Notes: generated by a model not told the origin, from the letters alone. Positions 2,997-61,531 are shown, numbered from the stretch's first letter. The stretch is DNA of 64,000 nucleotides from Candidatus Omnitrophota bacterium (GCA_014728075.1 WJMG01000075.1:4262-68261), one strand, 5' to 3'. Made by a program: numbers and translations.

Positions 2997-3895
2997 GATC
3001 CTCCGAAGAAAAAAGATAAGACTATAACTATACCGGCCGCGGTGTGAAGCCCCACCGTCAATTTACTGGCCTTATTGTATTCCGCGAACCCGCCGGAGAG
3101 ATCCCTTAAAAGAGATGCCGCCCTGTACCCGAGGATAAAAAAAGGCAGACAGACCAGAGCGGACACCGGAAAGAGGCCGTATAATACATTCAGGACGGTA
3201 AAACACGCCGCCATGCCTACAGGAACAATATAAAGGATCCAGGCTTTTCGCCTGCCCGCGGCGGTCATCAGGTTCTTTTTACCGGCCTCCGTGTCGGTCT
3301 TTATGTCCGGCACTTCGTTGCATAATATTACGGCAAGCACCAGAAAACCTATGGGCAATGACACCAGAAACGGCTCCGGCCCCAGCATGCCGGTGAATAT
3401 CAAAAAACTTCCTGCCGAAAGCAGGGGACCGAACAGAAGGAAAATAACGGCTTCCCCTCCCCTTCTGTAAGCCAGTTTTAACGGAGGCGCCGTATATCCG
3501 ACAGCAAGGACGCCTCCCGCGAGCATAAATAAAAGGATCCTGTAATCGAAGACTACAAGGAAAAGAGCCAGTCCTGAGGCAAAAGAGAGCGCCATGAGGA
3601 GCTTCCCCCAGAAAAGCACCCGGCGCGGGCTTGCCTGGCCCCGGGCTATGAGGCCGGACCCGCCGAAAAAGGCGCTTCTTCCCGATCCGATGCCGTCGGC
3701 GCCGCTTTTATGGTCCCAGTAATTATTGATCGCGTTCGCCCCGAGATGAGCGAAAGCCGTGCCCGCCAACCCCAGAAAAAGGACCAGCGGGTAAAGGGCA
3801 TAACCCCTGTAATGAGCGAAACCGGCGCCCGCCAAAAACGGGATAAGGCTGGCCGGCAGGAAATTCGCCCTTGTTATCTTTGGGAATAAAAACAT
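2978..3895 (-). CDS. UbiA family prenyltransferase (MenA-like 1,4-dihydroxy-2-naphthoate polyprenyltransferase)
   Basis: Multi-TM protein with NAINNYWDHKSGAD motif (NxxxDxxxD) of UbiA/MenA. Adjacent to the polyprenyl synthase and ndh, giving a menaquinone context. Confidence 0.7.
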   Translation of the reverse strand: MFLFPKITRANFLPASLIPFLAGAGFAHYRGYALYPLVLFLGLAGTAFAHLGANAINNYWDHKSGADGIGSGRSAFFGGSGLIARGQASPRRVLFWGKLLMALSFASGLALFLVVFDYRILLFMLAGGVLAVGYTAPPLKLAYRRGGEAVIFLLFGPLLSAGSFLIFTGMLGPEPFLVSLPIGFLVLAVILCNEVPDIKTDTEAGKKNLMTAAGRRKAWILYIVPVGMAACFTVLNVLYGLFPVSALVCLPFFILGYRAASLLRDLSGGFAEYNKASKLTVGLHTAAGIVIVLSFFFGGSCPKIS

Positions 3896-4476: not shown

Positions 4477-5175
4477 TCATAAACTCAGCATTCCGGCTTT
4501 GTAAATATAATATTCCCCGAGTAAAATCAATAACAGGGCGAAAATTTTCTGTACCGCTTTCATCGCTTTCTCCGACCTGGGAAGGGAAGAAACTATCCCC
4601 GCGAAAGTTCCGATAACTATCAGAACAACGCCGAACCCGAGAGCGAAAGTAAAAAGCAGCGAGACCCCCAGAACCGGATTCTGGGTGGTTGCCACAAAAG
4701 CGAGCAAAGCCCCCAGCACCGCCGCGGCGCAGGGAGAGGCCACGAACCCGGAGGCGACACCCATAAAGAACACCGAAAGAGGGTGCCCGCTCTTTCCGGG
4801 CTTTCCGGCCCCCGCTCTTGCCAGCAGCAAAGTGGGAAGCGGGATCACATCAACAAGCGCCAGCGCAAAAAATATCATCACATTACCGACGACCAAATAT
4901 ACCAGGGGGTTGGTCTGGAACTGACCGAAAAGCTTTCCGGTCAAGGCCGCGGCGGCGCCCAGCGCGGAAAATGTGACCGCCATGCCCATGACATAGCTTA
5001 CCGAAAGGATAAAGTTCCTGGCCCTTGAGGAATCCCTGCCGGTACCTATCACGCCTACTATAATGGGTATCAACGGATAGACACATGGAGTGAAAGATGT
5101 GGCGAGGCCGCCGAGAAACACGGCTATGAAAGTGACCGGAGAAGGATTGTTCAGGTAATACGAAATATCCTGCAT
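4477..5175 (-). CDS. ccdA: cytochrome c-type biogenesis protein CcdA (DsbD transmembrane domain)
   Basis: Two conserved Cys in TM helices (FTPCVYPLIP, SPCAAAVL). Start set at MQDISYY (ATG 5175) with a GGAAAGGTGA Shine-Dalgarno sequence. Confidence 0.85.
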   Translation of the reverse strand: MQDISYYLNNPSPVTFIAVFLGGLATSFTPCVYPLIPIIVGVIGTGRDSSRARNFILSVSYVMGMAVTFSALGAAAALTGKLFGQFQTNPLVYLVVGNVMIFFALALVDVIPLPTLLLARAGAGKPGKSGHPLSVFFMGVASGFVASPCAAAVLGALLAFVATTQNPVLGVSLLFTFALGFGVVLIVIGTFAGIVSSLPRSEKAMKAVQKIFALLLILLGEYYIYKAGMLSL

Positions 5176-6280: not shown

Positions 6281-7197
6281 GCCCACCCCCTGTTCCTCGC
6301 CAGATAGCTGAAAGCCCCTAAAGCTGCCTTGGCTCCCTCTCCGGCGGCTATTATTATCTGTTTTTCCGGAATATCCGTGACATCTCCGGCCGCGTATATG
6401 CCTTCAACGCTCGTCTCGTTCCGAAAGTTCACTTTTATCTCTCCAGAACCGTTCTTTTCAACGGCGCTTTCGAACTCCGAATTAGGGATAAGGCCTACCT
6501 CGACGAAAACACCTTCTACGGCTAAATCCCGCCTGCCCGCGGGAGTCTGGACGCTTACCCCGCCGACCAGGCCATTACCGGATATCTCCAGTATCGTGCT
6601 GGAGTTCATAACGGTCACCTTATCCGAAGACATCACCTTTTCCCTTATTACCGCGTCACCGCCCGGTTCTTCGGTGTTATTTACAAGATAGACATGGTCC
6701 GCTATCCTTATAAGCTGGAGCGCGGCTTCCAGAGCGGAATTCCCGCCTCCGGCGACAACGACCTTTTTCCCCGCGAAAAGGGGAGCGTCGCAGGTCGCGC
6801 AATAAGTCACTCCCCTGTTACGGAACTCCTTTTCCCCCGGAACGCCCATTTCCCTGGACCTCTTGCCGGAAGCGATAATGACCGTCCTTGCCGCGTAATA
6901 CGCTTCCTCCGTCCCCACCTTCACTACGCCGCCGTCCTTGAGTATGGAAACGGCCTTTTCCCCTTCTCTCATCTCCACGGCGTATTTTTTCATGTGTTCT
7001 TCGAATTTCGCCGCAAGCTCGTTGCCGGTTATGAACTGGTATCCTGCATAGTTCTCTATTTCCCCGCTCCAGGCGGCCTGTCCGCCTATATCAAGAGATA
7101 CTACCAGAAGGTCCATCTTTTTCCTGGCGGCGTATATCGCCGCCGTAATTCCCGCCGGACCGGCGCCTATTATGATAAGGTCGTAAATTTTATCCAT
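6277..7197 (-). CDS. trxB: thioredoxin-disulfide reductase
   Basis: 306 aa, FAD motif IIGAGPAG, redox-active CATCD motif, NADPH-binding GGGNSA. Confidence 0.9.
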   Translation of the reverse strand: MDKIYDLIIIGAGPAGITAAIYAARKKMDLLVVSLDIGGQAAWSGEIENYAGYQFITGNELAAKFEEHMKKYAVEMREGEKAVSILKDGGVVKVGTEEAYYAARTVIIASGKRSREMGVPGEKEFRNRGVTYCATCDAPLFAGKKVVVAGGGNSALEAALQLIRIADHVYLVNNTEEPGGDAVIREKVMSSDKVTVMNSSTILEISGNGLVGGVSVQTPAGRRDLAVEGVFVEVGLIPNSEFESAVEKNGSGEIKVNFRNETSVEGIYAAGDVTDIPEKQIIIAAGEGAKAALGAFSYLARNRGWA

Positions 7198-9289: not shown

Positions 9290-10465
9290 CTATACTCTTT
9301 CGGTCAATTCTCCCTTCACCTTCTCCTTTATCTCATCAAGCCGTTCCTTGCGGGGAACATACTGGACCTTTAAACTCTCCATCATTTCGAACCCGCAGGA
9401 AGAAAGCACCTCGTTTATTCCGGGTATACTCTGGCCGCCCCATCCGTATGAACCGAATGCCATGGCTTTTCTGTTCCTGGGAGAAAGGCCTTTAAGATAT
9501 GTCAAGAAAGACCCCACCGTCGGCAGCATGCCGTTATTGAGGGTGGGTGAACCCACGCATATGTACCTGGAATCAAGAACATGGGTCATTATATCCGAAA
9601 TATGGCATGTCCTGAGGTTCTCTATCCTGGATACAATGCCTTTTTCCTCAAAAGCCTCCTGGAGGGAGTAAGCTATCTTTCCGGTAGAACCCCACATCGT
9701 GTCGTAGACAATGACCGCTTTATCGACGGATTCGTTAGCGGACCACTTGCCGTAAAGCTCCAGTATCTTATCGATGTTCCTGCGCCATATGAGACCGTGG
9801 CTCGGAGCTATCATGTCCACATCCAGGCCGGCGACCGCCTCAAGGGCTCTTTGGACCTGGTTTCCGTAAGGCAGTACTATGTTCGCGTAATATTTCGCGG
9901 CCTCGGACCTCACGATATCCCATCCTATCTCGTCGTCGAACCTTTCCTCCGAAGCTATATGCTGGCCGAAAGCGTCGTTAGGTATCAGAAGCCTGTCCCG
10001 GGGAACATAAGTGGCCATTGAATCGGGCCAGTGCACCATTTGTGTCAGAACAAAACTCAGGTCCCTTTTCCCTATATTTAGAGAATCCCCCGTGTTCACG
10101 ACCTTTATATCCCATCCGGAGGTATCGTAATGGAATTTCAGGCCTTTTTCCCCGTTAGGGGATGTGACAACGGTAGCCTCCGGGCAGATTTCCATTATCC
10201 GGGGCAGGGAACCCGAATGGTCCATTTCCACATGGTTACAGACCACATAATCGATCTTCGATGGGTCCGCTATTTTTTTGATCCTCTCGAGCATTTCATC
10301 GAAAAGGTAGTACTTGACGGTGTCTACGAGGACCAGTTTCTCATCCTTTATGAGATAGGAATTATAAGTGGATCCTCTCTGGGTAAGGTAGCCGTGGAAA
10401 TTCCTGAGGTCCCAGTCGATCCCCCCTACCCAGAAAATATCCTTTTTTATTTCAAGAGCTTTCAT
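9290..10465 (-). CDS. fprA: flavodiiron protein (FprA / rubredoxin:oxygen oxidoreductase family)
   Basis: 391 aa; metallo-beta-lactamase-like diiron domain (HVEMDHSG) followed by a flavodoxin-like domain. Confidence 0.9.
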   Translation of the reverse strand: MKALEIKKDIFWVGGIDWDLRNFHGYLTQRGSTYNSYLIKDEKLVLVDTVKYYLFDEMLERIKKIADPSKIDYVVCNHVEMDHSGSLPRIMEICPEATVVTSPNGEKGLKFHYDTSGWDIKVVNTGDSLNIGKRDLSFVLTQMVHWPDSMATYVPRDRLLIPNDAFGQHIASEERFDDEIGWDIVRSEAAKYYANIVLPYGNQVQRALEAVAGLDVDMIAPSHGLIWRRNIDKILELYGKWSANESVDKAVIVYDTMWGSTGKIAYSLQEAFEEKGIVSRIENLRTCHISDIMTHVLDSRYICVGSPTLNNGMLPTVGSFLTYLKGLSPRNRKAMAFGSYGWGGQSIPGINEVLSSCGFEMMESLKVQYVPRKERLDEIKEKVKGELTERV

Positions 10466-22231: not shown

Positions 22232-22370
22232 ACAACAAAAGAACTCCCTGCTTTTTCCGCGCAGGGAGTTCTTTTGTTTTCTCCTCCCTACGCCGGCATT
22301 AACCGGATCAGGTCAACGGGTAATCCGACTTCATCGGAACTCTCAGAAGGACCAGCCTCCTCCCCGGGAT
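22232..22370 (-). ncRNA. TPP (thiamine pyrophosphate) riboswitch with terminator expression platform
   Basis: Minus-sense sequence carries the conserved GGGGAG...CUGAGA...ACCC...UGACCUGAUCCGGUUAAUGCCGGCGUAGGGA core. It is followed by hairpin AAAAGAACUCCCUGC/GCAGGGAGUUCUUUU plus a U-rich tail, about 80 nt upstream of thiS. Confidence 0.85.
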
Positions 22371-22505
22371 ATCTTTTTTTTCACATATTATAAAGGACCT
22401 CCCGGTCATATCCTGTCGAGCGGCCTTTATCCAAGACCTCAAAAAAACCGAAGATCCTCAAATGAAATTAGACCATAATACTACAGTAAAGTCAATATAT
22501 TGATA

Positions 22506-35672: not shown

Positions 35673-36014
35673 CTACCCTATCGCCTCGTGCCCGGTCTCT
35701 CCGGTCCGTATGCGGATGCAATCGGCGAGATCCAGGACGAGTATCTTCCCGTCCCCTATATTTCCGGTCCTCGCTCCTTTTACGATAGCGTCTATAGTAG
35801 GCTGGACGAACTCCTTGTTCACCGCTATCTCAAGCCTTATCTTCTTGAGAAGGTTCACTTCGTGGACCACGCCCCTGTATGTCTCGGTAAAACCTTTCTG
35901 CTGGCCGCAACCGAGCGCGTTAGTAACTGTCATCTTATGTATGTCCGCCTCAAAAAGCGCTTTTTTGACATCGGGCAGCTTGTGAGGCTGTATCATCGCT
36001 ACTATCAACTTCAT
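35673..36014 (-). CDS. glnK: nitrogen regulatory protein P-II
   Basis: 113 aa from [10 protein letters not shown]; T-loop (GFTETYRG) and B-loop (TGNIGDGKI); AAGGAG Shine-Dalgarno sequence. Confidence 0.9.
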
Positions 36015-36091
36015 GGCGATCACTCCTTGTTCAGTTATTAGTTAAGAGCCTCCGGACCGGACCGGTTCTTTCTCCGGACCCGTACTCTGAA

Positions 36092-37438
36092 CTACTGCGT
36101 TGTAAAGATCTGGAAACCCGAATACGCCTCCATGCCGTGTTCGGTTATGTCCAGGCCTTTGAGTTCTTCTTCCCTCGAGACCCTGAGCCCGATAACCGCG
36201 TTGATGGTCTTGAAAACAACTGTCATGGCTACCAGGACGAACGCTACTACGGCAAAAGCGCCGAGCGCCTGTATGCCGAGCTGTTCAAATCCCCCTCCGT
36301 GCAATAGGCCGTCACGGGCAAGCCCCAGAGCTTTACGCCCGAATATACCTACGGCGAGGGTCCCCCAGATACCGTTGACCATATGCACGGGGACAGCGCC
36401 TACCGGATCGTCTATCTGGACCCTGTCAAGGAACAAGGTCGCGGCTACTACCAGTATACCCCCGATGGCCCCTATCAGAAGAGCTTCGGCAGGTATGACA
36501 TACGCGCATGGCGCCGTTATGGCCACAAGGCCGGCCAGAGCGCCGTTCATGGTCATGGTCAGATCGGGCTTTCCGCACTTTTTCCAGGCGTAGAACATTG
36601 CCACGAGAGCTCCGCTGACGGCCGAAAGGTTCGTGTTAACGGCAACCTTGGCTATAAGGCTTCCGTCACCGACAGCAAGCGTGGATCCCGGGTTGAACCC
36701 GAACCAGGCAAACCACAGTATAAGGGCTCCCAGCGAGGCCAGGGCCATGGAATGCCCTTCTATGGCATTGGCCGAACCGTCCTTATTGTATTTACCTATT
36801 CTCGGGCCCAGCACCATGGTCCCTACCAGCGCGGCCGTGCCGCCGACGGCGTGTACCACCGCGGATCCCGCGAAATCGCCGAAACCCAGCCCGGCGAGCC
36901 AGCCGCCGCCCCAGACCCAGTGGCCTACGAAGGGGTACACGGCAGCCGATATAATGAAAGAATACATGAGATACGCTTTGAACTTCATCCTTCCCGCGAT
37001 GCCTCCCGCGACTATGGTCGCGGCCGCTCCGCAAAATACGGCGTGGAAGAACCAGGTAGCCTCAAGCGGAAGCGCGCCTTCGTGTGCGGCGTTTATGAGC
37101 ATCCATCCTTCCCAGCCCATGAAACCGTTTCCCTTGCCGAACATTATGGCGTACCCGAACATGAAAAATCCCATTGAAGCCATGCAGAAGTCCAGAAAGT
37201 TGTTCATCAGGACATTACATACATTCTTCGTCCTCAACAGACCCGCTTCAAGCATACCGAAACCGGCCTGCATGATAAAGACCATAAAGGCCGCTATCAT
37301 CACCCAAAGGGTATCGATACCGGTAGTAGTGGCATACTTTTCCGTTCCCTCGGCCAGGGCGGGCCCGGCGAGAAAGCCGAACGCGAAAGCGGCAGAGGCG
37401 GCAGCGAATACCGTTCTTCTTAACCATCCCCTCTTCAT
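36092..37438 (-). CDS. amtB: ammonium transporter Amt
   Basis: 448 aa, signal peptide plus 11 TM helices, Amt signature. Confidence 0.95.
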   Translation of the reverse strand: MKRGWLRRTVFAAASAAFAFGFLAGPALAEGTEKYATTTGIDTLWVMIAAFMVFIMQAGFGMLEAGLLRTKNVCNVLMNNFLDFCMASMGFFMFGYAIMFGKGNGFMGWEGWMLINAAHEGALPLEATWFFHAVFCGAAATIVAGGIAGRMKFKAYLMYSFIISAAVYPFVGHWVWGGGWLAGLGFGDFAGSAVVHAVGGTAALVGTMVLGPRIGKYNKDGSANAIEGHSMALASLGALILWFAWFGFNPGSTLAVGDGSLIAKVAVNTNLSAVSGALVAMFYAWKKCGKPDLTMTMNGALAGLVAITAPCAYVIPAEALLIGAIGGILVVAATLFLDRVQIDDPVGAVPVHMVNGIWGTLAVGIFGRKALGLARDGLLHGGGFEQLGIQALGAFAVVAFVLVAMTVVFKTINAVIGLRVSREEELKGLDITEHGMEAYSGFQIFTTQ

Positions 37439-37459
37439 CTCTCTCCTCCTTTTCGGTTA

Positions 37460-37503
37460 AAAAAGATAAGGCGCCTTCCGGCCTACACGGCCAAAAGACG
37501 CCT
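37460..37503 (-). terminator. terminator-like hairpin with U-tract in the amtB(1) leader
   Basis: Minus-sense GGCG..GGCCGUGUAGGCC..CGCC followed by UUAUCUUUUUU, about 40 nt upstream of the amtB ATG. Confidence 0.4.
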
Positions 37504-37531
37504 TCGTCGTTACCATTACCCGTAATATCGC

Positions 37532-37582
37532 GCACATCACTGTGCTTGATAATACAAGTAAACCGGGGATGGTTATGGTAAC
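37532..37582 (-). promoter_or_regulatory. conserved nitrogen-operon upstream element, copy 1
   Basis: About 50 nt shared with copy 2 at 40648..40702: GTTACC-N9-CCGGNTTTACTTGTATTATC(A/G)AGCAC-N6-GTGC. Confidence 0.5.
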
Positions 37583-37659
37583 TTTTATTTAAGGTTTGTT
37601 CGTAAAGGAGACCGGAACAGCCCGGAACTATACCCCGTTCTCTTTATCCGATACTCTTT

Positions 37660-38001
37660 TTAACCTATCGCCTCACTTCCCGTCTCCCCTGTCCTTATCC
37701 TTACACATTCCGCGAGATCCATAACAAAGATCTTCCCGTCTCCTATATTGCCCGTCCTCGCCCCTTTTACGATAGCGTCTATAGTGGGCTGGACGAAGTC
37801 CTTGTTAACCGCTATCTCCAGCCTTATCTTCTTGAGAAGGTTCACTTCGTGGACCACGCCCCTGTATGTCTCGGTAAAACCCTTCTGCTGGCCGCAGCCG
37901 AGGGCGTTGGTGACCGTCATCTTGAAGACCTCGGCCTCGTACAAAGCCTTCTTAACATCGGGCAGTTTGTGCGGCTGTATCATCGCTACTATAAGTTTCA
38001 T
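37660..38001 (-). CDS. glnK: nitrogen regulatory protein P-II (second copy)
   Basis: 113 aa from MKLIVAMIQ; AAGGAGGG Shine-Dalgarno sequence. Confidence 0.9.
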
Positions 38002-38013
38002 GACCACCCTCCT

Positions 38014-39360
38014 TTATTTGGATTCTGTCGCGAATATCTGGAACCCGGCATAGGACTCCATACCGTGTTCGCCTATATCCAGCCCTTTAAGCTGTTCCTC
38101 ATCGGAAGCCCTCAGGCCCATGGTCAGCTTAATAATACCGAAAAGCGCGAAGGCGGCCCCGAAAGTCCACAGAAAAACCGAACCCACACCTACGGCCTGC
38201 GTTATTAACTGGGACAGACCTCCACCGAAGAAAAGGCCGTTGGCTCCCCCGTAGGCCTCCTGGGCGAACAGCCCGACGGCAAGGGTGCCCCAGGCTCCGC
38301 ATACGCCGTGTACGGAGACCGCGCCGACGGGATCGTCGATCCTGAGGACCTTGTCGATGAACTCGACGCTGAAAACTACCAGTATCCCGGCTACCGCACC
38401 TATGATGATCGCGCTGGAGGGAGATACATTGGCGCAACCCGCGGTTATTCCGACAAGCCCGGCCAGCGCGCCGTTAAGCGACATACTGACATCCGGCTTA
38501 CCGAACTGCAGCCAGACCGTTATCATGGCCGCCACCGCGCCCGCGGCCGCCGCAAGATTGGTAGTAACCGCTATTACCGCTATGCTCAGGTCGGTACCGG
38601 CCGTCGTACTGCCGGCGTTGAAACCGAACCATCCGAACCACAATATGAACACACCGAGCGCGGCAAGAGGTATGTTATGGCCCTGTATGGCGTTGGATGA
38701 CCCGTCACTGTTATACTTACCGAGTCTTGGCCCCAGAAGCAGGGCTCCGGCGAGAGCCGCCCATCCGCCTACCGAATGCACTACGGTGGACCCGGCAAAA
38801 TCGATCATTCCTTTCGCCGAAAGCCATCCGCCTCCCCATATCCAGTGCCCCACTACCGGATATATAACAGCGGTAAGAAAAGCGCTGTAGGCCAGATAGG
38901 AAGAGAACTTGGTCCTTTCCGCCATCGCTCCCGAAACGATAGTGGCCGCGGTCGCCGCGAACACCGCCTGGAAGATCCAGAAAGTGAACTGCCAGAGACC
39001 GTCGGCGGTCGACGGGTCGGCACTGCTTAAAAAGAAACCGCTCTTTCCGAAAAGCCCGAAAGCGCTCGCCCCGAACATTATCGCGAAACCCACGGCCCAG
39101 TAAGCCAGTGAACCTACGGCGAAATCCATAAGGTTCTTCATCATTATGTTACACGCGTTCTTGGCCCTGGTAAACCCGGTTTCCACCATCGCGAAACCGG
39201 CCTGCATGAAAAACACCAGTATCGCGGCGAGAAGGGTCCACACGGTGTCGATAGCCACCGCGTTGGAAGCCGCTGTGGCCCCGTCATCCCCCCACGCCCG
39301 CGGCACCAGACCAAGGACCAGAGCCGGCATTATCCTGAGTATTTTACTTAACATCTTCAT
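38014..39360 (-). CDS. amtB: ammonium transporter Amt (second copy)
   Basis: 448 aa; paralogue of 36092..37438. Confidence 0.95.
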   Translation of the reverse strand: MKMLSKILRIMPALVLGLVPRAWGDDGATAASNAVAIDTVWTLLAAILVFFMQAGFAMVETGFTRAKNACNIMMKNLMDFAVGSLAYWAVGFAIMFGASAFGLFGKSGFFLSSADPSTADGLWQFTFWIFQAVFAATAATIVSGAMAERTKFSSYLAYSAFLTAVIYPVVGHWIWGGGWLSAKGMIDFAGSTVVHSVGGWAALAGALLLGPRLGKYNSDGSSNAIQGHNIPLAALGVFILWFGWFGFNAGSTTAGTDLSIAVIAVTTNLAAAAGAVAAMITVWLQFGKPDVSMSLNGALAGLVGITAGCANVSPSSAIIIGAVAGILVVFSVEFIDKVLRIDDPVGAVSVHGVCGAWGTLAVGLFAQEAYGGANGLFFGGGLSQLITQAVGVGSVFLWTFGAAFALFGIIKLTMGLRASDEEQLKGLDIGEHGMESYAGFQIFATESK

Positions 39361-39394
39361 GATATCCTCCTTCCCGTATCCTAATGGTACAGGA

Positions 39395-40222
39395 TCAATA
39401 AGAGAATCCTAATGTCACCCCGCCGAAGAACTCGTTCTCCTGCGCGTCGTTATAGGTATCCCTGTCCAGTATTACCGAATAGGAAACATTGGGCACCAGA
39501 TAAAAATGGTTGAAGAACGGTATTGTAACATCAAGCGACAAAAGCATATCGCTCCATCCGTGTTTATCCGTCCACTGTTCGTAATTGTAGCCGAAGGCAG
39601 CGCCTATATCGGCCGTGATATCGTTCCCCAGGTCAAAAGTATGTCCGCCGCCGAACTGGAGATATGAACCGTGGCCGGCTTCGACATCCCAGTACCAGGT
39701 AAAGAAAGGCTGGAGGAGAATGTCGTAAGAAGTTCCCACAAAGACCTCATGGGAAGTGGCTCCCTTCTCATCCAGGTCCATGTTGGGAAAAGTGTAAAAG
39801 GTATATCCCATCGAAATGCTCCACGGGTCCAGCGCCTCCGCGTCTTCAACGCCCATGTAACCCATCATCTCTCCGACGGAAAACTCGTAACTGGCTGTAT
39901 AATCAAGTTCAGTAAGCTCCTGGTACGACCCGTTCGCCTTGTCGCGGCTCATGCTGTAGTTCCCCCAGAGATCCAGAGTGAACCCGTATTTTGACAGGTT
40001 GACATCGAACTGCATTACCGGGGCGTCGACCAGGTTCTGCCCTCTCCAGATGTACTTGCTCATGAAAGCGGTGCTTGCGTCAAGATCGGGCATGCCCTCC
40101 GGCTTCGCGGGCAGATAATCCTCCTCCATGTCAAGTACGGCATGAGCGCTCGCGCACATTAAGGTAATCCCCGCAAAAAGCGTGAACGCCCTCAAAAAGA
40201 TCTTTTTCCTGAAACTGCACAT
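39395..40222 (-). CDS. putative outer-membrane porin (beta-barrel)
   Basis: Start at MCSFRKK with AAGGAGGG Shine-Dalgarno; signal peptide; alternating aromatic/hydrophilic strands; ends GFSY. Confidence 0.5.
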   Translation of the reverse strand: MCSFRKKIFLRAFTLFAGITLMCASAHAVLDMEEDYLPAKPEGMPDLDASTAFMSKYIWRGQNLVDAPVMQFDVNLSKYGFTLDLWGNYSMSRDKANGSYQELTELDYTASYEFSVGEMMGYMGVEDAEALDPWSISMGYTFYTFPNMDLDEKGATSHEVFVGTSYDILLQPFFTWYWDVEAGHGSYLQFGGGHTFDLGNDITADIGAAFGYNYEQWTDKHGWSDMLLSLDVTIPFFNHFYLVPNVSYSVILDRDTYNDAQENEFFGGVTLGFSY

Positions 40223-40518
40223 GATACCCTCCTTCTTTTCGTTTTCGAGAGACTTTCTCCCCCTGATATGTAACATTCTTCCACCGACATGACCTCCAGG
40301 TCAAGCATTTTGATCCCTTTTCCGAACATGCGCTCGAAGTCAGATGTGATCCTCGGCAACTCCTCTCCCGTAACATATGCTTCTATTCTGACATCGAACC
40401 ATATTTCGGGGATTTCACCGAAGTCGAGGACCAGCATCCTTTTCACTCCGGCCCCGGAAAGTCTTGAAAGGACCGGGTCCAGCTCGGAGCGTTCGCACCT
40501 TAACTCGATCTTCTTCAT
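40192..40518 (-). CDS. small PII-like (GlnB-fold-like) protein, function unknown
   Basis: 108 aa from MKKIELRCERSELDPVLSRLSGAGVKRMLVLDFGE (AGGAGGGGAAGG Shine-Dalgarno sequence); the N-terminal pattern mirrors GlnB. The 3' end overlaps the porin start by 31 nt. Confidence 0.4.
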   Translation of the reverse strand: MKKIELRCERSELDPVLSRLSGAGVKRMLVLDFGEIPEIWFDVRIEAYVTGEELPRITSDFERMFGKGIKMLDLEVMSVEECYISGGESLSKTKRRRVSCAVSGKRSF

Positions 40519-40532
40519 CCTTCCCCTCCTTT

Positions 40533-40580
40533 CTTTAAAAAAAAGCGCCCTGCCCCTTCCCGAATCTCCGGAAAGAGAGG
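40533..40580 (-). terminator. hairpin plus U8 tract in the leader of the PII-like/porin/amtB operon
   Basis: Minus-sense CUCUUUCC-ggagauucg-GGAAGGGG ... GGGCGCUUUUUUUU, about 20 nt upstream of the Shine-Dalgarno sequence. Confidence 0.35.
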
Positions 40581-40647
40581 ACGCCCTTGTCAAAAAAGAC
40601 ATTCCTCCCGGAACGCCTTTGTCTGATAACATCTTTGTGTTCTTTTA

Positions 40648-40702
40648 CCGTGCACTGCTACGTGCTCGATAATACAAGTAAATCCGGATACTTTCCGGTA
40701 AC
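40648..40702 (-). promoter_or_regulatory. conserved nitrogen-operon upstream element, copy 2
   Basis: See copy 1; contains CCGGATTTACTTGTATTATCGAGCACGTAGCAGTGCACGG. Confidence 0.5.
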
Positions 40703-41223
40703 TACATAAGCTCTTCCTTGAGCGCCGAGCATTTTTCCCTTATGTTCTTAGTTATCTTCCCCACCATTACATGCGAAACCCCTATTTTATCGCCTATCTC
40801 CCTGGTGGTGTAACCTTCCAACCTGTAGAAAAACACATTCTTTTCCCTTTCCGTGAACATTGACTCCGTTTCGTCCAGAAGAAGGTATATCTCCAGGGTC
40901 CCCGTATCCTTTGTATAACTATCGGAGACCAGGGTATCCTCGATGGTGATATCCTCCTCGATAGGGGTATACATGCTGATGGAATTCCTGTCCACGCTCT
41001 TGCATATTTTCCTTATATAGTTCTTCAGGAAGAAATATGACCCCTGAAGTATATAGCTGTCGGTCTTTCCTTCCAGCTCGCCGTTCTCGAACCTTAGCCA
41101 GAGGTCAAGAAGGGCTTCCTGAAAGAAATCGTCCTCGTCGCAGTAAGAATATCTGTTCCTTACCTTGTACGAAATAGCTCTTATCCTGGGCGAATATTTT
41201 GCGAGAACATCTTCGTAGCTCAT
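40702..41223 (-). CDS. RNA polymerase sigma factor, sigma-70 family (ECF-sized)
   Basis: 173 aa from MSYEDVL; region 2 (FFQEALLDLWLRF) and region 4 HTH (REKNVFFYRLEGYTTREIGDKIGVSHVMV). Confidence 0.7.
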   Translation of the reverse strand: MSYEDVLAKYSPRIRAISYKVRNRYSYCDEDDFFQEALLDLWLRFENGELEGKTDSYILQGSYFFLKNYIRKICKSVDRNSISMYTPIEEDITIEDTLVSDSYTKDTGTLEIYLLLDETESMFTEREKNVFFYRLEGYTTREIGDKIGVSHVMVGKITKNIREKCSALKEELM

Positions 41224-41254: not shown

Positions 41255-41300
41255 AAAAAGCCCTTTCGGGTCCTTTTCAGGACCCGAAAGGGCTTCGATG
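41255..41300 (-). terminator. rho-independent terminator after the GAF-ANTAR gene
   Basis: Minus-sense GAAGCCCUUUCGGGUCC-ugaaaa-GGACCCGAAAGGGCUU followed by UUUUCUUUAU. Confidence 0.75.
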
Positions 41301-41440
41301 CCTTAACCCGGCCGCGGGCTTTATGAACTAAAAAAGAGGCTTCCATTCCGGTAAGCCTCTTCGCGTTTTGTACATCCGTGTACGACTTTTATTATACTAC
41401 TTTCCCGGATCAAAGTCAACAACTATCGTCTTTCACAAGG

Positions 41441-42148
41441 TCACTTTTTACCGCCCGATATCTCGAAGGACAGTATAACGGCCTCTGCCACTTCCTTCAT
41501 GGAAATACGCTTGTTCATGCTGGACTTCCTCAAGAGCTTGTATGCCTCGTCCTCGGAAAGGTCCTGCTGCCTCATCAGAATACCCTTTGCTTTCTCGACC
41601 TTTTTCCTGGTCTCGAGCTCTTCCTGGATCACTTTGGTCTTTACCATCAGTTCTGTATTCTCTATCGCTACAGCCGCCTGGTTGGCGACGGCGCTCAGAA
41701 GTTCAATATCACTTTTGGTAAAATCGTGTTTCTCGACCGTGTAAACATTTATAACGCCTATGACCTTTTCCTTGACCATCATAGGCACGCTTAACATCGA
41801 AATAAGGCCTTCTTTCTTCGCGAGCTGCTTTTCCTTATACCTGTCGTCCTGGGAAACATCCTTTATAACAAGCGGCTCGGCTTCTTCGGCTACCAGGCCC
41901 ACTATACCCTCCCCCACCTTTATGGCCCTTTCTTTCAGATATTCCTGGCTCATTGCCTGCGTTGCCCTTATCCTGAGTTCCCCGGCTTCTTCGTCGAGAA
42001 GCCAGAGAGCGCATATTTCGGCCCCCATGACACCCGCGGTGAGATTAACGATCAGCTTAAGTATATCCTCGAGGTAAAGGTCGCTGGTTATAGCGTGGCT
42101 TATCCTGGTCAAGGTCGAAAGATATTCTTTTTCAGAAGATTTCGGCAT
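41441..42148 (-). CDS. GAF-ANTAR RNA-binding antitermination regulator
   Basis: 235 aa; N-terminal GAF domain, C-terminal ANTAR motif (AKGILMRQQDLSEDEAYKLLRKSSMNKRISMKEVAEAVI). Confidence 0.8.
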   Translation of the reverse strand: MPKSSEKEYLSTLTRISHAITSDLYLEDILKLIVNLTAGVMGAEICALWLLDEEAGELRIRATQAMSQEYLKERAIKVGEGIVGLVAEEAEPLVIKDVSQDDRYKEKQLAKKEGLISMLSVPMMVKEKVIGVINVYTVEKHDFTKSDIELLSAVANQAAVAIENTELMVKTKVIQEELETRKKVEKAKGILMRQQDLSEDEAYKLLRKSSMNKRISMKEVAEAVILSFEISGGKK

Positions 42149-42264
42149 GATTTTTCCCCGGTTTAAATATTTATCGCTGCCCTGTCCTCGGGCATTCTCG
42201 AAACATATCCCCCGCTTTCACCCGGGCTTCTTCGCCGCGGAAGTTCCCGGGACATTCCGAGTTT

Positions 42265-42297
42265 ATGAGTTACGGGCGCAAAGCGCCCGTAACTCAT
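42265..42297. repeat. 33-nt perfect palindrome ATGAGTTACGGGCGC-AAA-GCGCCCGTAACTCAT
   Basis: 15-bp perfect inverted repeat with a 3-nt centre, 9 nt past the glnN stop codon and upstream of the GAF-ANTAR gene. Confidence 0.8.
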
Positions 42298-42306
42298 GTG
42301 CTCATT

Positions 42307-44400
42307 TTACATCATGAAGAGCATTTCCGCGTAAGACGGGAGCGGCCAGATCTCGTCCGGAAGAAGTTCTTCCAGACGGTCGACGGCTACTCTGAGCTCG
42401 TTCATAGCGTCTATCTTTTCGGAAGCCTTGCCTCCAAGAGCGGCTTCGAGTTCCTTTATACCCTTGAGCATCTTCTCGGTCTCGCCGCCTACTTCCTTGA
42501 GAAGGTCCATAGTACCGTCCGACTTGCACCCGCATGTTTTCATGTCATCTATGGTCCCCGCGAGCGAAGACTGGTACTCCAGGGCTATGGGAACTATCAT
42601 TGTCCTGGCCATTTTGAGCGCGACACTGGCTTCGATAGTAATGGTCTCTTCATACTGCTCCTCGTAGATATCGTGCCTTGAAGCCAGCTCCTCGGGTGTG
42701 AGGACTTTATGTTTCTTGAACATCTCGATCACTTTAGGATCTTTTGTAGCTTCGAGAGCCGCTTCGGTGTTCCTCAGGTTCGGAAGCCCTCTCTTTTCGG
42801 CTTCCTTGTGCCAGTCTTCGGTATAATTATCACCGTTGAAGAGTATTCTTTTATGTTTTTTGACTATACCCTGAAGCACGACCTGTAGAGCTTCGTTAAA
42901 ATCCTTACCGGATTTCACATCAGACTCGAGTTCCGTGCATATCTCATCGAGAGCATCCGCGACTATAGTGTTAAGCACGATGTTAGGCCCGGCGCAGCTC
43001 TGGTTGGATCCCGGCGCCCGGAACTCGAACTTATTCCCCGTAAAGGCGAAGGGGCTCGTCCTGTTCCTGTCAGTCACATCTTTGGGAAGCTGCGGCAGGG
43101 AATCCACCCCGAGTTCAAGGAGATCCGCCTGCTTTGAGCTTTTTGCGCCACCCTTTTCTATCTGGTCGATTATATCCGTAAGCTGGTCTCCCAGAAATAT
43201 GGACAGTATCGCCGGCGGAGCCTCGTTAGCGCCCAGCCTGTGGTCGTTACCGGCGGTAGCTACCGAAGCTCTAAGCATCGGCGCGTTAGTATCGATCGCC
43301 TTCATGAGCGCGCATATCATGGTAAGGAACTTGGCGTTCTCGTGCGGATTATCCCCCGGGGAAAGCCAGTTCTTGCCGTCCGGACCGACCACCGACCAGT
43401 TGTTATGCTTACCCGATCCATTGACCCCGGCGTATGGTTTTTCGTGAAGAAGGCATACAAAACCGTGCTTTTCCGCCACCTTTTTCAGCGTCTCCATACA
43501 TATCATGTTGTGATCTATCGAAAGGTTCTGCTCCTCAAAAACCGGAGCTATCTCGAACTGCGCCGGACAGACCTCGTTGTGACGGGTCTTTGCCGGTATA
43601 CCCAGCCTCCAGAGCTCCCTGTCCAGATCGTCCATAAAGGACATGACCCTTGTCCTGATAGCTCCGAAGTAATGATCGTCCATCTGCTGGTGTTTAGCCG
43701 GGGCGCTGCCGAAAAGGGTCCTTCCCGTCTGTATCAGGTCAAGCCTGGCTTCGTAAAACGACCTGTCGACAAGAAAATATTCCTGTTCGGGGCCGAGGGT
43801 GGCGTAAGCTCTCTTGTCTTTAGTGTCTATACCGAAAAGCCCAGCCAGGCGGCATACCTGTTTTGAGAGAGCCGCGACCGACCTTAAAAGAGGTGTCTTC
43901 TTGTCAAGCGCTACCCCTGTATAGGAATAGAAAGCCGTCGGGATGCACAGGGTCGCCCCTATTTCCCCTTTCTTTATGAAAGCGGGCGAAGTCGGGTCCC
44001 ATGCGGTATACCCTCTGGCTTCGAAGGTAGCCCTGAGCCCTCCGGACGGAAAACTTGAAGCGTCCGGCTCGCCTTTAATAAGCTCATTGCCGGAAAATTT
44101 CATAATAACGCCGCCTTCCTGGTCCGGCTCTATGAAAGAATCGTGTTTTTCGGCCGTCGCCCCCGTGAGCGGCTGGAACCAGTGGGTAAAATGGGTCGCG
44201 CCCTTAGCGACCGCCCAGGTCTTCATGGCGTCGGCGACCTCGTCGGCTATGGAAGGGTCTATCGTCTTGCCTTCCTTTATTGTCGCGATAAGCGAACCAT
44301 ACGCTTTTTCCGAAAGGTAATTGCGCATGTTCTTGATGCTGAAAACATTCTCGCCGTAAATATCCGCTACCGACCTTACTCCCATTTCTTCCTTACACAT
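42307..44400 (-). CDS. glnN: glutamine synthetase type III
   Basis: About 697 aa from MCKEEMGV (AAGGAGG Shine-Dalgarno sequence); length and conserved segments typical of GSIII (GlnN). Confidence 0.9.
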   Translation of the reverse strand: MCKEEMGVRSVADIYGENVFSIKNMRNYLSEKAYGSLIATIKEGKTIDPSIADEVADAMKTWAVAKGATHFTHWFQPLTGATAEKHDSFIEPDQEGGVIMKFSGNELIKGEPDASSFPSGGLRATFEARGYTAWDPTSPAFIKKGEIGATLCIPTAFYSYTGVALDKKTPLLRSVAALSKQVCRLAGLFGIDTKDKRAYATLGPEQEYFLVDRSFYEARLDLIQTGRTLFGSAPAKHQQMDDHYFGAIRTRVMSFMDDLDRELWRLGIPAKTRHNEVCPAQFEIAPVFEEQNLSIDHNMICMETLKKVAEKHGFVCLLHEKPYAGVNGSGKHNNWSVVGPDGKNWLSPGDNPHENAKFLTMICALMKAIDTNAPMLRASVATAGNDHRLGANEAPPAILSIFLGDQLTDIIDQIEKGGAKSSKQADLLELGVDSLPQLPKDVTDRNRTSPFAFTGNKFEFRAPGSNQSCAGPNIVLNTIVADALDEICTELESDVKSGKDFNEALQVVLQGIVKKHKRILFNGDNYTEDWHKEAEKRGLPNLRNTEAALEATKDPKVIEMFKKHKVLTPEELASRHDIYEEQYEETITIEASVALKMARTMIVPIALEYQSSLAGTIDDMKTCGCKSDGTMDLLKEVGGETEKMLKGIKELEAALGGKASEKIDAMNELRVAVDRLEELLPDEIWPLPSYAEMLFMM

Positions 44401-44448
44401 GACTACCTCCTTGGATTGTATGACACACACTAAATTTTACTCTTTTTC

Positions 44449-44584
44449 GCCTGAAAAAGAAAGAACATCCTTTCCGGGCCGCTATAAAAGAAGCCTTAAA
44501 AGGATGTTCTTCCCTGAACTTCCCGTTTATCCCTCACAACAAAGTGGGGGTAAAAAGAAAAGGCACTCCCGTAAAAGGAATGCC
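44449..44584 (-). promoter_or_regulatory. glnN leader with two terminator-like hairpins (candidate attenuator)
   Basis: Hairpin 1 GGCAUUCC-uuuuac-GGGAGUGCC plus UUUUCUUUUU (44551..44584). Hairpin 2 AGAACAUCCUUUU...AAAGGAUGUUCUU plus UCUUUUUC (44449..44510). Confidence 0.5.
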
Positions 44585-44690
44585 TCTTTGCTTTCAAATC
44601 CGCACTGCTTCGTGCAGTTTTTATTTTACCCTATTCCTGAATTTTGTCAACATCTTTTTTTGCCCGCTTTTCCCGCTTCTTCTGCCTGCC

Positions 44691-60180: not shown

Positions 60181-61531
60181 GATCTCGCCGGACATTCTGA
60201 TCATCCTCACGGTCTCTTCGATCGTTCTCTTATGGAACCTCGGAACCGGCAGCCTGTGCTCATGGGACGAAGGATTATACGGCGGGGTTACCCGTGAAAT
60301 AATACATACGGGTAACTGGATAGACCTTAGGTGGGCCGGGCAGCCCTGGAGCGATAAACCCCCTCTTTACATGTGGGTAACGGCTCTTTTCTCGAGGGTC
60401 CTAGGATTAAATGAGTTGTCCGTAAGGTTGTTTTCGGCGCTTGCCGGCGTAGGGACGGTTCTGCTCACTTACCTTACGGCTCTTAAGCTTTACTCCAGGA
60501 AAGAAGCCTTTTCCTCAGCCCTGGTCCTTCTTTCAACCTGGGCTTTCCTATGGTCCTCTAAAATGGGCATGCTTGACATTCCCATGACCTTTTTTATCGC
60601 GCTCGCGATATGCCTTTTCGAATACGGAAAAGACAACAGGCTATGCCTTTTCCTCTCCCCTCTGGCTTTTACGGGAGCCTTCCTGACCAAAGGTATGGGC
60701 GCCATGCTCATACCGCTGATACTGGGGCTTTATATCCTTATATCAGGCAGGATAAAAATCCTCAAAGACCCGGCTCTGATCTGCGGTACTATTACCGCTC
60801 TGGCGCTTTCGGCGATATGGCCTCTCGCGGCCGCGGGAGCTTACGGCAAAGAGTTTATCGATGACTATTTCCTAAAACATCTGGTCACCAGGACAACAAA
60901 AGCCGTTGAAGGCCACACGGGAGGGCTCTTCACCTATTTCGGCGTTCTGCCTAATAAGGGGCGGCCATGGGCAGGTATAGGCCTCGCCCTCTCTCCTCTG
61001 CTCATCTGGAGGACCATACGCTTCCGCGAAAAAGAGCACCTGCTTCCGCTCGTGTGGACCTTTACAGTGCTTCTTCTCTTCAGCGCGGTCCGCACCAAAC
61101 TGCACTGGTATGTGATGCCCGTCTACCCGGCGCTGGCGATCATCACCGGATGGGGCGCCGCAAAGCTCTTGAAAAGCCGCGTTTTCATAATGATGCCTCT
61201 TCTCTGCGCCCTTTCTCTTTTTTATCTTGCGACGGAAAAAAACATCTTTGATCTCGACTATTCCCCGGAGACAAAAATGTTCGCCGAAAGCGCTTTGAAC
61301 CTCGGGGAATGCGGCAAACCTCTCTATGCCTACAAGGTCAGCGATCCGGGGCTTCAGTTCTACCTGACCGGAAAAACGCTTCGCGTATACGATACCGAAA
61401 AGATAAAATTAACGATGAGATCCGGCAAGAATTATGTGGTCACGAACAGAAGAGAACTTAAACACCTGAAAGGCGAGCCTTACAGCATTGTACTCGAAGA
61501 GGATAACTTCGTGCTGATACGGAGTGAGTAG
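60152..61531 (+). CDS. GT-C family glycosyltransferase (family 39 / ArnT-PMT-like)
   Basis: About 460 aa, multi-TM; first periplasmic-loop motif SWDEGLYG and downstream KPPLYMW. Confidence 0.8.
   Translation: MKILRAYENKISPDILIILTVSSIVLLWNLGTGSLCSWDEGLYGGVTREIIHTGNWIDLRWAGQPWSDKPPLYMWVTALFSRVLGLNELSVRLFSALAGVGTVLLTYLTALKLYSRKEAFSSALVLLSTWAFLWSSKMGMLDIPMTFFIALAICLFEYGKDNRLCLFLSPLAFTGAFLTKGMGAMLIPLILGLYILISGRIKILKDPALICGTITALALSAIWPLAAAGAYGKEFIDDYFLKHLVTRTTKAVEGHTGGLFTYFGVLPNKGRPWAGIGLALSPLLIWRTIRFREKEHLLPLVWTFTVLLLFSAVRTKLHWYVMPVYPALAIITGWGAAKLLKSRVFIMMPLLCALSLFYLATEKNIFDLDYSPETKMFAESALNLGECGKPLYAYKVSDPGLQFYLTGKTLRVYDTEKIKLTMRSGKNYVVTNRRELKHLKGEPYSIVLEEDNFVLIRSE

Follow-up and report, generated by a model that had tools for sequence, protein, structure and literature searches.

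A predicted ECF-type sigma factor promoter joined to ANTAR-type attenuator leaders upstream of ammonium transporter operons in Candidatus Omnitrophota

Nitrogen control is a textbook example of how diverse regulation can be, with systems as different as sigma-54/NtrC, NtcA, TnrA/GlnR, GlnR/AmtR and GnfM/GnfR; to our knowledge, nothing is known about it in Omnitrophota, an uncultivated and widespread phylum. Here we analyze a 64-kb stretch of DNA from a Candidatus Omnitrophota bacterium (the "window", whose coordinates are used throughout), in which an initial annotation had noticed a conserved element of about 50 nucleotides (nt) in two copies, A (37582..37532), located between glnK2 and amtB1, and B (40702..40652), located directly after a gene of the sigma-70 family. 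The element and all genes of this region are on the minus strand. We propose, with a probability of about three in four, that the element is composite, i.e. that a promoter with the boxes GTTACC and ACTTGTA, predicted to be used by an extracytoplasmic function (ECF)-type sigma factor, is followed by a 5' leader in which ANTAR-type dual hairpins would gate read-through into the downstream genes.

The closest described relatives of the first building block are the ECF (group 4) sigma factors, such as sigma-E of Escherichia coli and SigW of Bacillus subtilis. The window protein resembles them in its compact size (about 175 amino acids (aa)) and in its full-length match to the ECF model, the predicted promoters resemble theirs in having two short boxes about 16-17 nt apart, and the sigma gene lies beside its (here predicted) target genes, which is typical of ECF systems (PMC7826278). 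The systems differ in that the targets of the sigma-E/SigW type are envelope-stress genes, whereas those proposed here are nitrogen-assimilation genes, and in that the sigma gene of the window has a housekeeping-type promoter with ANTAR-type attenuators and no motif of its own upstream.

The second building block is known from the ANTAR systems EutV/eut, NasR/nasF and AmiR/amiE. In these, as in the window, there are two hexaloop hairpins (A or G at loop position 1, G at position 4), the second of which overlaps an intrinsic terminator, and an ANTAR-domain protein is encoded nearby. The window departs from them in the GAF sensor, in the long linkers (23-28 nt) and in the one G1 loop of each leader; moreover, its leaders are predicted to start from a dedicated alternative-sigma promoter, and the sigma gene is itself a predicted ANTAR target. 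According to PMC3369931, no GAF-ANTAR protein had been characterised when that paper appeared.

A need for both special initiation and ANTAR antitermination at the leader terminators of glnK-amtB and other nitrogen genes, predicted here, is a feature of GnfL/GnfM and GnfK/GnfR of Geobacter. In Geobacter sulfurreducens the ANTAR regulator GnfR reportedly acts at the leaders of glnK-amtB, via CAGGCAANGGCGCC (PMC2995071). This sequence can be written as GGC[AANGGC]GCC, with the same loop as the second hairpin (P2) found here, GAC[AAAGGC]GUY. Initiation in Geobacter, however, depends on sigma-54 and an enhancer-binding protein, whereas an ECF-type sigma factor is predicted here, and the Geobacter antiterminator is a two-component response regulator, whereas here it would be a GAF protein. 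The order of control differs as well, the initiation factor apparently standing below the antiterminator in the window, the reverse of the situation in Geobacter.

Sites of the NtcA, TnrA and GlnR type are likewise located upstream of ammonium-transporter and PII genes, but they are dyad-symmetric (GTA-N8-TAC and TGTNA-N7-TNACA), whereas the boxes found here are 17 nt apart and unrelated in either orientation. The loose NtcA/TnrA-like outline mentioned in the initial annotation is not supported, as there is no dyad, and neither of the boxes GTTACC and ACTTGTA is a direct or inverted repeat of the other. In the literature, of which our coverage is incomplete, we found no description of this sigma/promoter pair, nor of an ECF sigma factor tied to ANTAR control or to ammonium transport. 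While each of the two building blocks is of a known kind, the sequences of the boxes, the regulon of nitrogen-assimilation genes and the ANTAR attenuation of an ECF-type sigma gene appear to be new.

The bipartite motif and the adjacent sigma gene

The near-identity of the two segments is real: copy A reads GTTACC-ATAACCATCCCCGGT-TTACTTGTATTATCAAGCAC-AGTGAT-GTGC and copy B reads GTTACC-GGAAAGTATCCGGAT-TTACTTGTATTATCGAGCAC-GTAGCA-GTGC, and both are followed by GGTAA, as had been noted (A, GGGTAATGGTAAC; B, CGGTAAAAG). The ordered pattern originally written for the element holds as a repeat, except that its CCGG is shifted by one base between the copies in the ungapped register. A 21-nt block, TTTACTTGTATTATCRAGCAC, which is identical at 20 of 21 positions between A and B, occurs exactly twice in the 64 kb with three mismatches allowed, compared with no occurrence in 100 shuffles. 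This block as such is private to the genome under study; a scan of GTDB with one genome per species for its exact sequence returned two chance matches only, both inside a Bacteroides open reading frame (ORF). Embedded in the element is a bipartite motif, which is listed here together with the gene that adjoins copy B.

37577..37582, minus strand: -35-like box GTTACC of copy A, followed by A; invariant in 79/79 unique exact-match instances
37553..37559, minus strand: -10-like box ACTTGTA of copy A, preceded by a T-tract, exactly 17 nt from GTTACC
40697..40702, minus strand: -35-like box GTTACC of copy B, directly adjoining the stop codon TAG of the sigma-like gene
40673..40679, minus strand: -10-like box ACTTGTA of copy B, 17 nt from GTTACC
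40702..41223, minus strand: ECF-type sigma gene, 173 aa; the start is probably the ATG at 41223 rather than 41346 (orthologues have 174-176 aa)

The motif was traced in about 95 related Omnitrophota loci, gathered via the sigma gene; the more distant loci (at least 80, with 40-49% identity, 420 kb) are among the matches listed in a metagenome scan with the sigma alignment. Every one of the close sigma-containing loci with the gene order of the window contains exact GTTACC-N17-ACTTGTA without a mismatch, at two positions, directly after the sigma gene and, where a second amtB is present, between glnK and this amtB; one copy in these loci has an 18-nt spacer. The distant loci yielded about 85 exact matches in 420 kb, compared with about 0.01 expected. 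The motif is always on the strand of the sigma gene and points toward the downstream genes, and its spacer varies freely in sequence while being 17 nt long in nearly all instances (87) and 18 nt in a few. A position matrix built from the 79 unique sites gives gGTTACCAaaa-N7-tttttTACTTGTA-nnAnTGtAa, an A-tract and a T-tract forming the flanks.

Analysis of the surroundings of the motif revealed that it is located no more than 200 nt past the end of the sigma ORF in 67 of the 87 loci with enough downstream sequence, with a median distance of about 17 nt. The next recognised gene is amtB (24 cases), a porin-like gene (11), a PII-like gene (10), the type III glutamine synthetase gene (GSIII; 3) or gltB (1), and in most cases it begins 108-550 nt from the motif; translations read behind the remaining copies revealed glutamine synthetase I-like, glutamate-synthase-like and other outer-membrane-protein-like ORFs. 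The initial annotation had asked whether further copies precede nitrogen genes and had considered that the site might belong to the neighboring sigma factor. Our results answer the question in the affirmative and agree with the suggestion, since the motif follows the sigma gene and is also found before amt, glnK, glutamine synthetase and glutamate synthase genes. Three relatives without a sigma gene in the locus (L001, L003 and L004; a negative set of three loci only) possess GSIII, GAF-ANTAR, porin-like, amtB and glnK genes and contain neither the block nor the motif; in these, an ANTAR-type attenuator (a hexaloop hairpin with a terminator) is located directly after the GAF-ANTAR gene, before porin-amtB.

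Fixed spacing, a free spacer, asymmetric boxes, a single orientation and linkage to a sigma gene together make up the signature of an alternative-sigma promoter. With invariant boxes 17 nt apart in about 90 instances and a variable spacer, the element is most likely a site at the DNA level, namely a promoter for the adjacent sigma-70-family (ECF-type) sigma factor, as the initial annotation had considered. From the geometry of ECF promoters, the start site of copy A is predicted about 4-8 nt past ACTTGTA, at about 37549-37545. A sigma-54 promoter (TGGCAC-N5-TTGCW) was not matched with up to two mismatches in either leader region, and its count in the whole window is below chance.

The protein encoded next to copy B has the hallmark of ECF sigma factors, i.e. 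sigma-2 and sigma-4 domains only, within about 160-200 aa. It matches the sigma70-ECF model TIGR02937 over residues 5-166, including region 2, with 57.1 bits against a cutoff of 42.9. Its AlphaFold (AF2) model, with a predicted local distance difference test score (pLDDT) of 70, comprises two helical domains, and in a Foldseek comparison with the PDB all top matches are sigma factors, among them the ECF proteins SigH, SigE, SigW, AlgU, CnrH and SigK, with modest scores (E ~1e-3, TM ~0.35). Residues of the sigma-2 and sigma-4 regions that are presumed to read DNA are invariant across the orthologues, in parallel with the invariant boxes, and the conserved neighbors of the gene are the GAF-ANTAR gene upstream and the target operon downstream. 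Judging from these sequence comparisons, the ECF-type sigma factor encoded at 40702-41223 is most likely the protein that reads the motif.

Hairpins and terminators of the two leaders

The sequence GCAC-N6-GTGC at the end of each copy, which the initial annotation had taken for part of an operator, is better described as the first hairpin of the transcribed leader (P1), with an ANTAR-type hexaloop, than as a repressor site; it begins 8 nt past ACTTGTA. The predicted leader features are as follows.

37532..37545, minus strand: hairpin P1 of leader A, GCAC[AGUGAU]GUGC (A1, G4)
37509..37525, minus strand: linker of leader A, UUACGGGUAAUGGUAAC, an inverted copy of both promoter boxes
37497..37508, minus strand: hairpin P2 of leader A, GAC[GAAGGC]GUC, overlapping the 5' strand of the terminator
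37459..37504, minus strand: intrinsic terminator of leader A, with a 16-bp stem (37504..37468) and a U-run (37467..37459)
37452-37443, minus strand: ribosome-binding site of amtB1, with its ATG at 37438
40652..40665, minus strand: hairpin P1 of leader B, GCAC[GUAGCA]GUGC (G1, G4)
40591..40624, minus strand: hairpin P2a of leader B, GAC[AAAGGC]GUU (40623-40612), in terminator 1 (40624..40597), with a U-run
40537..40591, minus strand: hairpin P2b of leader B, GAC[AAGGGC]GUC (40591-40580), overlapping terminator 2 (40586-40544), with a U-run
40532-40523, minus strand: ribosome-binding site of the copy B operon, with its ATG at 40518

Hairpins of the P1 type, CAC[R..G..]GUG, are present in the first 90 nt of 58 out of 74 related leaders, compared with 0-1 in shuffles; their family consensus is (G/A)CAC[RnnGnn]GUG(C/U), and 50 of the 58 have A1/G4 loops. 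The second hairpin of the family conforms to RAC[nnnGGC]GUY and is followed by a U-run 15-35 nt further on, while the linker between P1 and P2 has a mode of 4-7 nt and a tail reaching 45 nt. The variable stem pairs, including the fourth pair of P1, covary between A-U, G-C and G.U, mismatches being few (Fisher tests uncorrected for phylogeny; P1, p=1e-5; P2, p=5e-4). Within the window, loop position 4 is G in all five hairpins, and position 1 is A in P1 of leader A and in both P2 hairpins of leader B.

P2 of leader A shares 8 nt (37504-37497) with the 5' strand of the terminator, and forcing it to form removes the terminator from the predicted fold (-26.2 vs -38.6 kcal/mol). Leader B contains two hairpin/terminator units, in which P2 and the terminator are likewise mutually exclusive in the predicted folds. 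When the whole window was scanned for a terminator combined with dual hexaloop hairpins, only these two leaders were found. U-tracts had been described 70-90 nt downstream of the element; they are present after both copies and belong to the attenuator terminators, but at different distances from the block, about 65 nt in A and about 52 and 105 nt in B. The strong intrinsic terminators are followed, as had been stated, by ribosome-binding sites of the GAAAGGAGG type. Both predicted leaders fit the published definition of ANTAR targets (PMC3369931 and PMC8164766), with the caveats of the linkers and of the G1 loops that are considered below.

An inverted arm like that of leader A was also found in L010 (about 4783-4798) and L013 (about 9489-9506), and in 4 of 76 leaders in all. 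In the window this arm (37509-37525) can pair with 37582-37553 only in read-through transcripts.

Alternative readings of the element

Several points weigh against the composite promoter-leader reading, in addition to the small set of sigma-less loci and the missing phylogenetic correction mentioned above. That the 13 core bases are invariant is in part a product of the sampling, because the loci were gathered via the sigma gene and exact matching was used to collect the instances, although variants with one mismatch were few. About 17 of 87 loci with a sigma homologue lack the motif downstream. Locus L098, which has neither a sigma nor a GAF-ANTAR gene within 8 kb, contains the variant GTTACC-N17-ACTTATA at 4815 (before porin-like, amtB and PII genes) and at 9904 (before GSIII); the sigma gene of L098 may be located elsewhere on the contig. 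The boxes GTTACC(A) and ACTTGTA are unlike the AAC and CGT boxes that are the usual signatures of ECF promoters. No anti-sigma gene was recognised in the conserved neighborhood, where no dedicated anti-sigma search was made; a co-encoded anti-sigma factor is usual for ECF sigma factors, but not universal. The motif is absent upstream of the sigma gene in every locus examined, so there is no autoregulation, which from an own upstream motif is usual for ECF sigma genes, but again not universal (PMC7826278).

As regards the leaders, the linkers of the window exceed the mode of the family, with 23 nt in A, 28 nt between P1 and P2a of B and 20 nt between P2a and P2b of B, compared with 5-12 nt in eut ANTAR targets and 2-25 nt in PMC8164766. 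Loop position 1 is G, not A, in P2 of A and P1 of B; one point variation from the A1/G4 loops is tolerated in PMC8164766. Finally, the inverted arm of leader A implies that the promoter sequence would also act as RNA in read-through transcripts.

In a different reading, the motif is bound by a transcription factor of the conventional kind, be it an activator or a repressor, and the housekeeping sigma factor initiates transcription; this factor could be the sigma-like protein itself, acting as a helix-turn-helix (HTH) regulator of the LuxR/GerE type. The protein has weak matches to GerE as well as to region 4, the sequence-only PDB matches of its C-terminal HTH include LuxR-type regulators, and in L098 the motif stands without an adjacent sigma gene. 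We nevertheless consider this reading unlikely, as a dimeric factor would need repeats, and the boxes are neither direct nor inverted repeats; no sigma70-type -35/-10 pair is present at or beside the motif sites on the gene strand; the geometry of a 7-mer, 16 nt and a -10 box is of the ECF promoter type; and the protein fits the sigma70-ECF model along nearly its whole length, region 2 included, with sigma factors as the fold matches of the whole chain.

The proposal that the whole 50-nt block is a structured RNA, i.e. a riboswitch aptamer or a protein-binding leader element, is very improbable in our opinion. It would agree with the strong terminators downstream, which resemble those of attenuation riboswitches, and with the A-type leaders, in which GUUACCAN and UACUUGUA can pair with the downstream inverted arm, with covariation at position 8 and G.U pairs kept in the window copy. 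The arm, however, is confined to the few leaders mentioned above, the 17-nt spacer is fixed in length and free in sequence, and the element of copy B begins at the stop codon of the upstream gene. RNAalifold, applied without gaps to the 79 unique sites, found no consensus structure and a folding energy equal to that of shuffles, and Rfam 15 gave no match in the element, either with the whole window at the gathering threshold or with the region at E values up to 10.

Hardly credible is the view, raised as a possibility in the initial annotation, that the similarity is a functionless remnant left when the amtB-glnK unit was duplicated locally with its upstream DNA. Paralogous amtB and glnK pairs do flank the copies, which share 11 more identical bases (TTATCRAGCAC) and CGG(G)TAA that other genomes have not conserved. 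The DNA identity of glnK1 and glnK2, however, is only 83% and their flanks cannot be aligned, against which the non-coding block with 20 of 21 identities stands out, and identical core boxes recur in about 90 instances across many genomes, both at the two positions of the window and before other nitrogen genes. The simplest account of the extra identity specific to this genome is that it probably reflects gene conversion between the two promoters.

The paralogues glnK1 (35673-36023) and glnK2 (37660-38007) share a central stretch of about 95 nt with almost perfect identity, which could result from gene conversion or from strong constraint on the T-loop region. In L009, a partial inverted A-type promoter spacer with the -10 box (CCATCCCCGGTTTACTTGTG) is present on the opposite strand at 3095-3130, just past GSIII; the amtB-glnK pair has moved in this locus, and the inverted copy is probably the scar of a rearrangement. 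A perfect palindrome at 60287-60316 of the window (GTTACCCGT...ACGGGTAAC) gives a match with two mismatches on both strands and is probably an unrelated hairpin. Two other candidate features of the block were rejected: a sigma70-type promoter (-10 TATTAT, -35 TTTACT), for which a matching partner box with correct spacing is missing and TATTAT is not kept by the relatives, and a hairpin CUUG[UAUUAU]CRAG, which the relatives do not conserve either.

Neighboring genes and the proposed circuit

The genes of the region follow each other on the minus strand in the order GSIII (42307-44430), GAF-ANTAR, sigma gene, copy B, small ORF, porin-like ORF, amtB2, glnK2, copy A, amtB1, glnK1, GATase and gltB. 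The transcription units of interest and the two further leaders with attenuators are listed below.

40192-40518, minus strand: small ORF behind copy B
39395-40276, minus strand: porin-like ORF behind copy B
38014-39360, minus strand: amtB2, behind copy B
37660-38007, minus strand: glnK2, behind copy B
36092-37438, minus strand: amtB1, behind copy A
35673-36023, minus strand: glnK1, behind copy A
41441..42148, minus strand: GAF-ANTAR gene, predicted antiterminator (Pfam GAF 3e-25, ANTAR 2e-21)
41255..41419, minus strand: leader of the sigma gene, with a sigma70-type (housekeeping-type) promoter TTGACT-17-TATAAT at 41419-41391
41383-41370, minus strand: first hairpin of the sigma leader, GUAC[ACGGAU]GUAC
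41362-41330, minus strand: sigma leader GC[GAAGAG]GC, overlapping terminator 1
41295-41255, minus strand: sigma leader GGC[AUCGAA]GCC, overlapping terminator 2
44450..44650, minus strand: leader of the GSIII/GAF-ANTAR operon, with a sigma70-type promoter TTGACA-16-TAAAAT and two attenuators

The best homologues of AmtB1 are from Omnitrophota, and the protein is 100% identical to one from a Candidatus Omnitrophica metagenome-assembled genome. The small ORF has a strong ribosome-binding site and no match in Pfam or NCBIfam, and shows 27% identity (E = 2e-5) with its positional counterpart in L017, the ORF at 6729-7067. The initial annotation had called it PII-like, which is not supported by BLASTP against GlnK2 (E = 0.13, not significant); the slot is filled by a divergent PII-like gene in loci that are more distant. 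The porin-like ORF, without a Pfam match, is conserved directly upstream of amtB in Omnitrophota loci, and in other loci different outer-membrane-protein-like genes take its place behind the same promoter motif. A strong 16-bp hairpin with no U-run on the gene strand is located at 42264-42298, directly after the GSIII stop and before the GAF-ANTAR gene. Elsewhere in the window, a thiamine pyrophosphate (TPP) riboswitch (RF00059) is present at 22268-22376 on the minus strand, its 73.3 bits exceeding the gathering score.

Synteny of the GAF-ANTAR gene extends to nearly all related loci, and its GAF domain resembles those of NifA and PtsP. The design of the sigma leader recurs in L008, L009, L010, L011, L013, L015 and L017, and the GGC[AxxGAx]GCC unit found in it is present directly before porin-amtB in the sigma-less relatives. 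The GSIII leader is laid out like that of the sigma gene: the hexaloop hairpins GC[AAAGAG]GC and GUUC[AGGGAA]GAAC each overlap an intrinsic terminator, which suggests that the GSIII/GAF-ANTAR operon may itself be under ANTAR control and so part of this ANTAR circuit.

The circuit that we propose builds on what was found by comparison, namely the invariance and spacing of the motif, its linkage to the sigma gene, the nitrogen genes downstream, the terminators, and hairpins that are enriched and covary; from these we infer the start site, the recognition of the motif by the sigma factor, the binding of GAF-ANTAR to the hairpins, and the signal. RNA polymerase carrying the ECF-type sigma factor would initiate at GTTACC(A)/(T)ACTTGTA of copies A and B, and the leader RNA would open with P1, followed by P2, whose 3' half doubles as the 5' strand of the terminator. 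The product of the GAF-ANTAR gene, which is located two genes upstream, would bind both hexaloops, hold P2 closed and thereby block the terminator, allowing read-through into porin-amtB2-glnK2 from copy B and into amtB1-glnK1 from copy A.

The location of the sigma gene behind a housekeeping-type promoter and ANTAR-type attenuators points to a cascade, in which GAF-ANTAR would first permit synthesis of the sigma factor via the two attenuators of its leader and would then gate read-through of the sigma-dependent transcripts. A single nitrogen signal would thus act on sigma synthesis and subsequently on elongation, i.e. as a coherent feed-forward AND gate. Given the resemblance of the GAF domain to those of NifA and PtsP, our guess is that the signal is 2-oxoglutarate, glutamine or PII.

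In its broadest form, which we regard as an evenly balanced proposition, this would be the master nitrogen circuit of Omnitrophota: an ECF-type sigma factor acting on GTTACCA-N16-ACTTGTA in place of sigma-54/NtrC, NtcA or TnrA/GlnR, and one GAF-ANTAR protein gating production of the sigma factor as well as elongation of the transcripts that it initiates. In one clade the promoter sequence would in addition pair as RNA with the inverted arm, so that read-through transcripts would be handled differently from those begun at the promoter.

The reading is directly testable in heterologous hosts, and the organism need not be grown. If it is true, it would provide a potentially orthogonal sigma/promoter pair for synthetic circuits and an invariant 14-base signature with which nitrogen regulons could be found in metagenomes. 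It would also give the first functional context for GAF-ANTAR proteins. For the Omnitrophota, it would mean a new solution to nitrogen control, in which an ECF-type sigma factor without an anti-sigma factor is governed by attenuation of its transcription, a control that is nested with the ANTAR control of the genes it serves.

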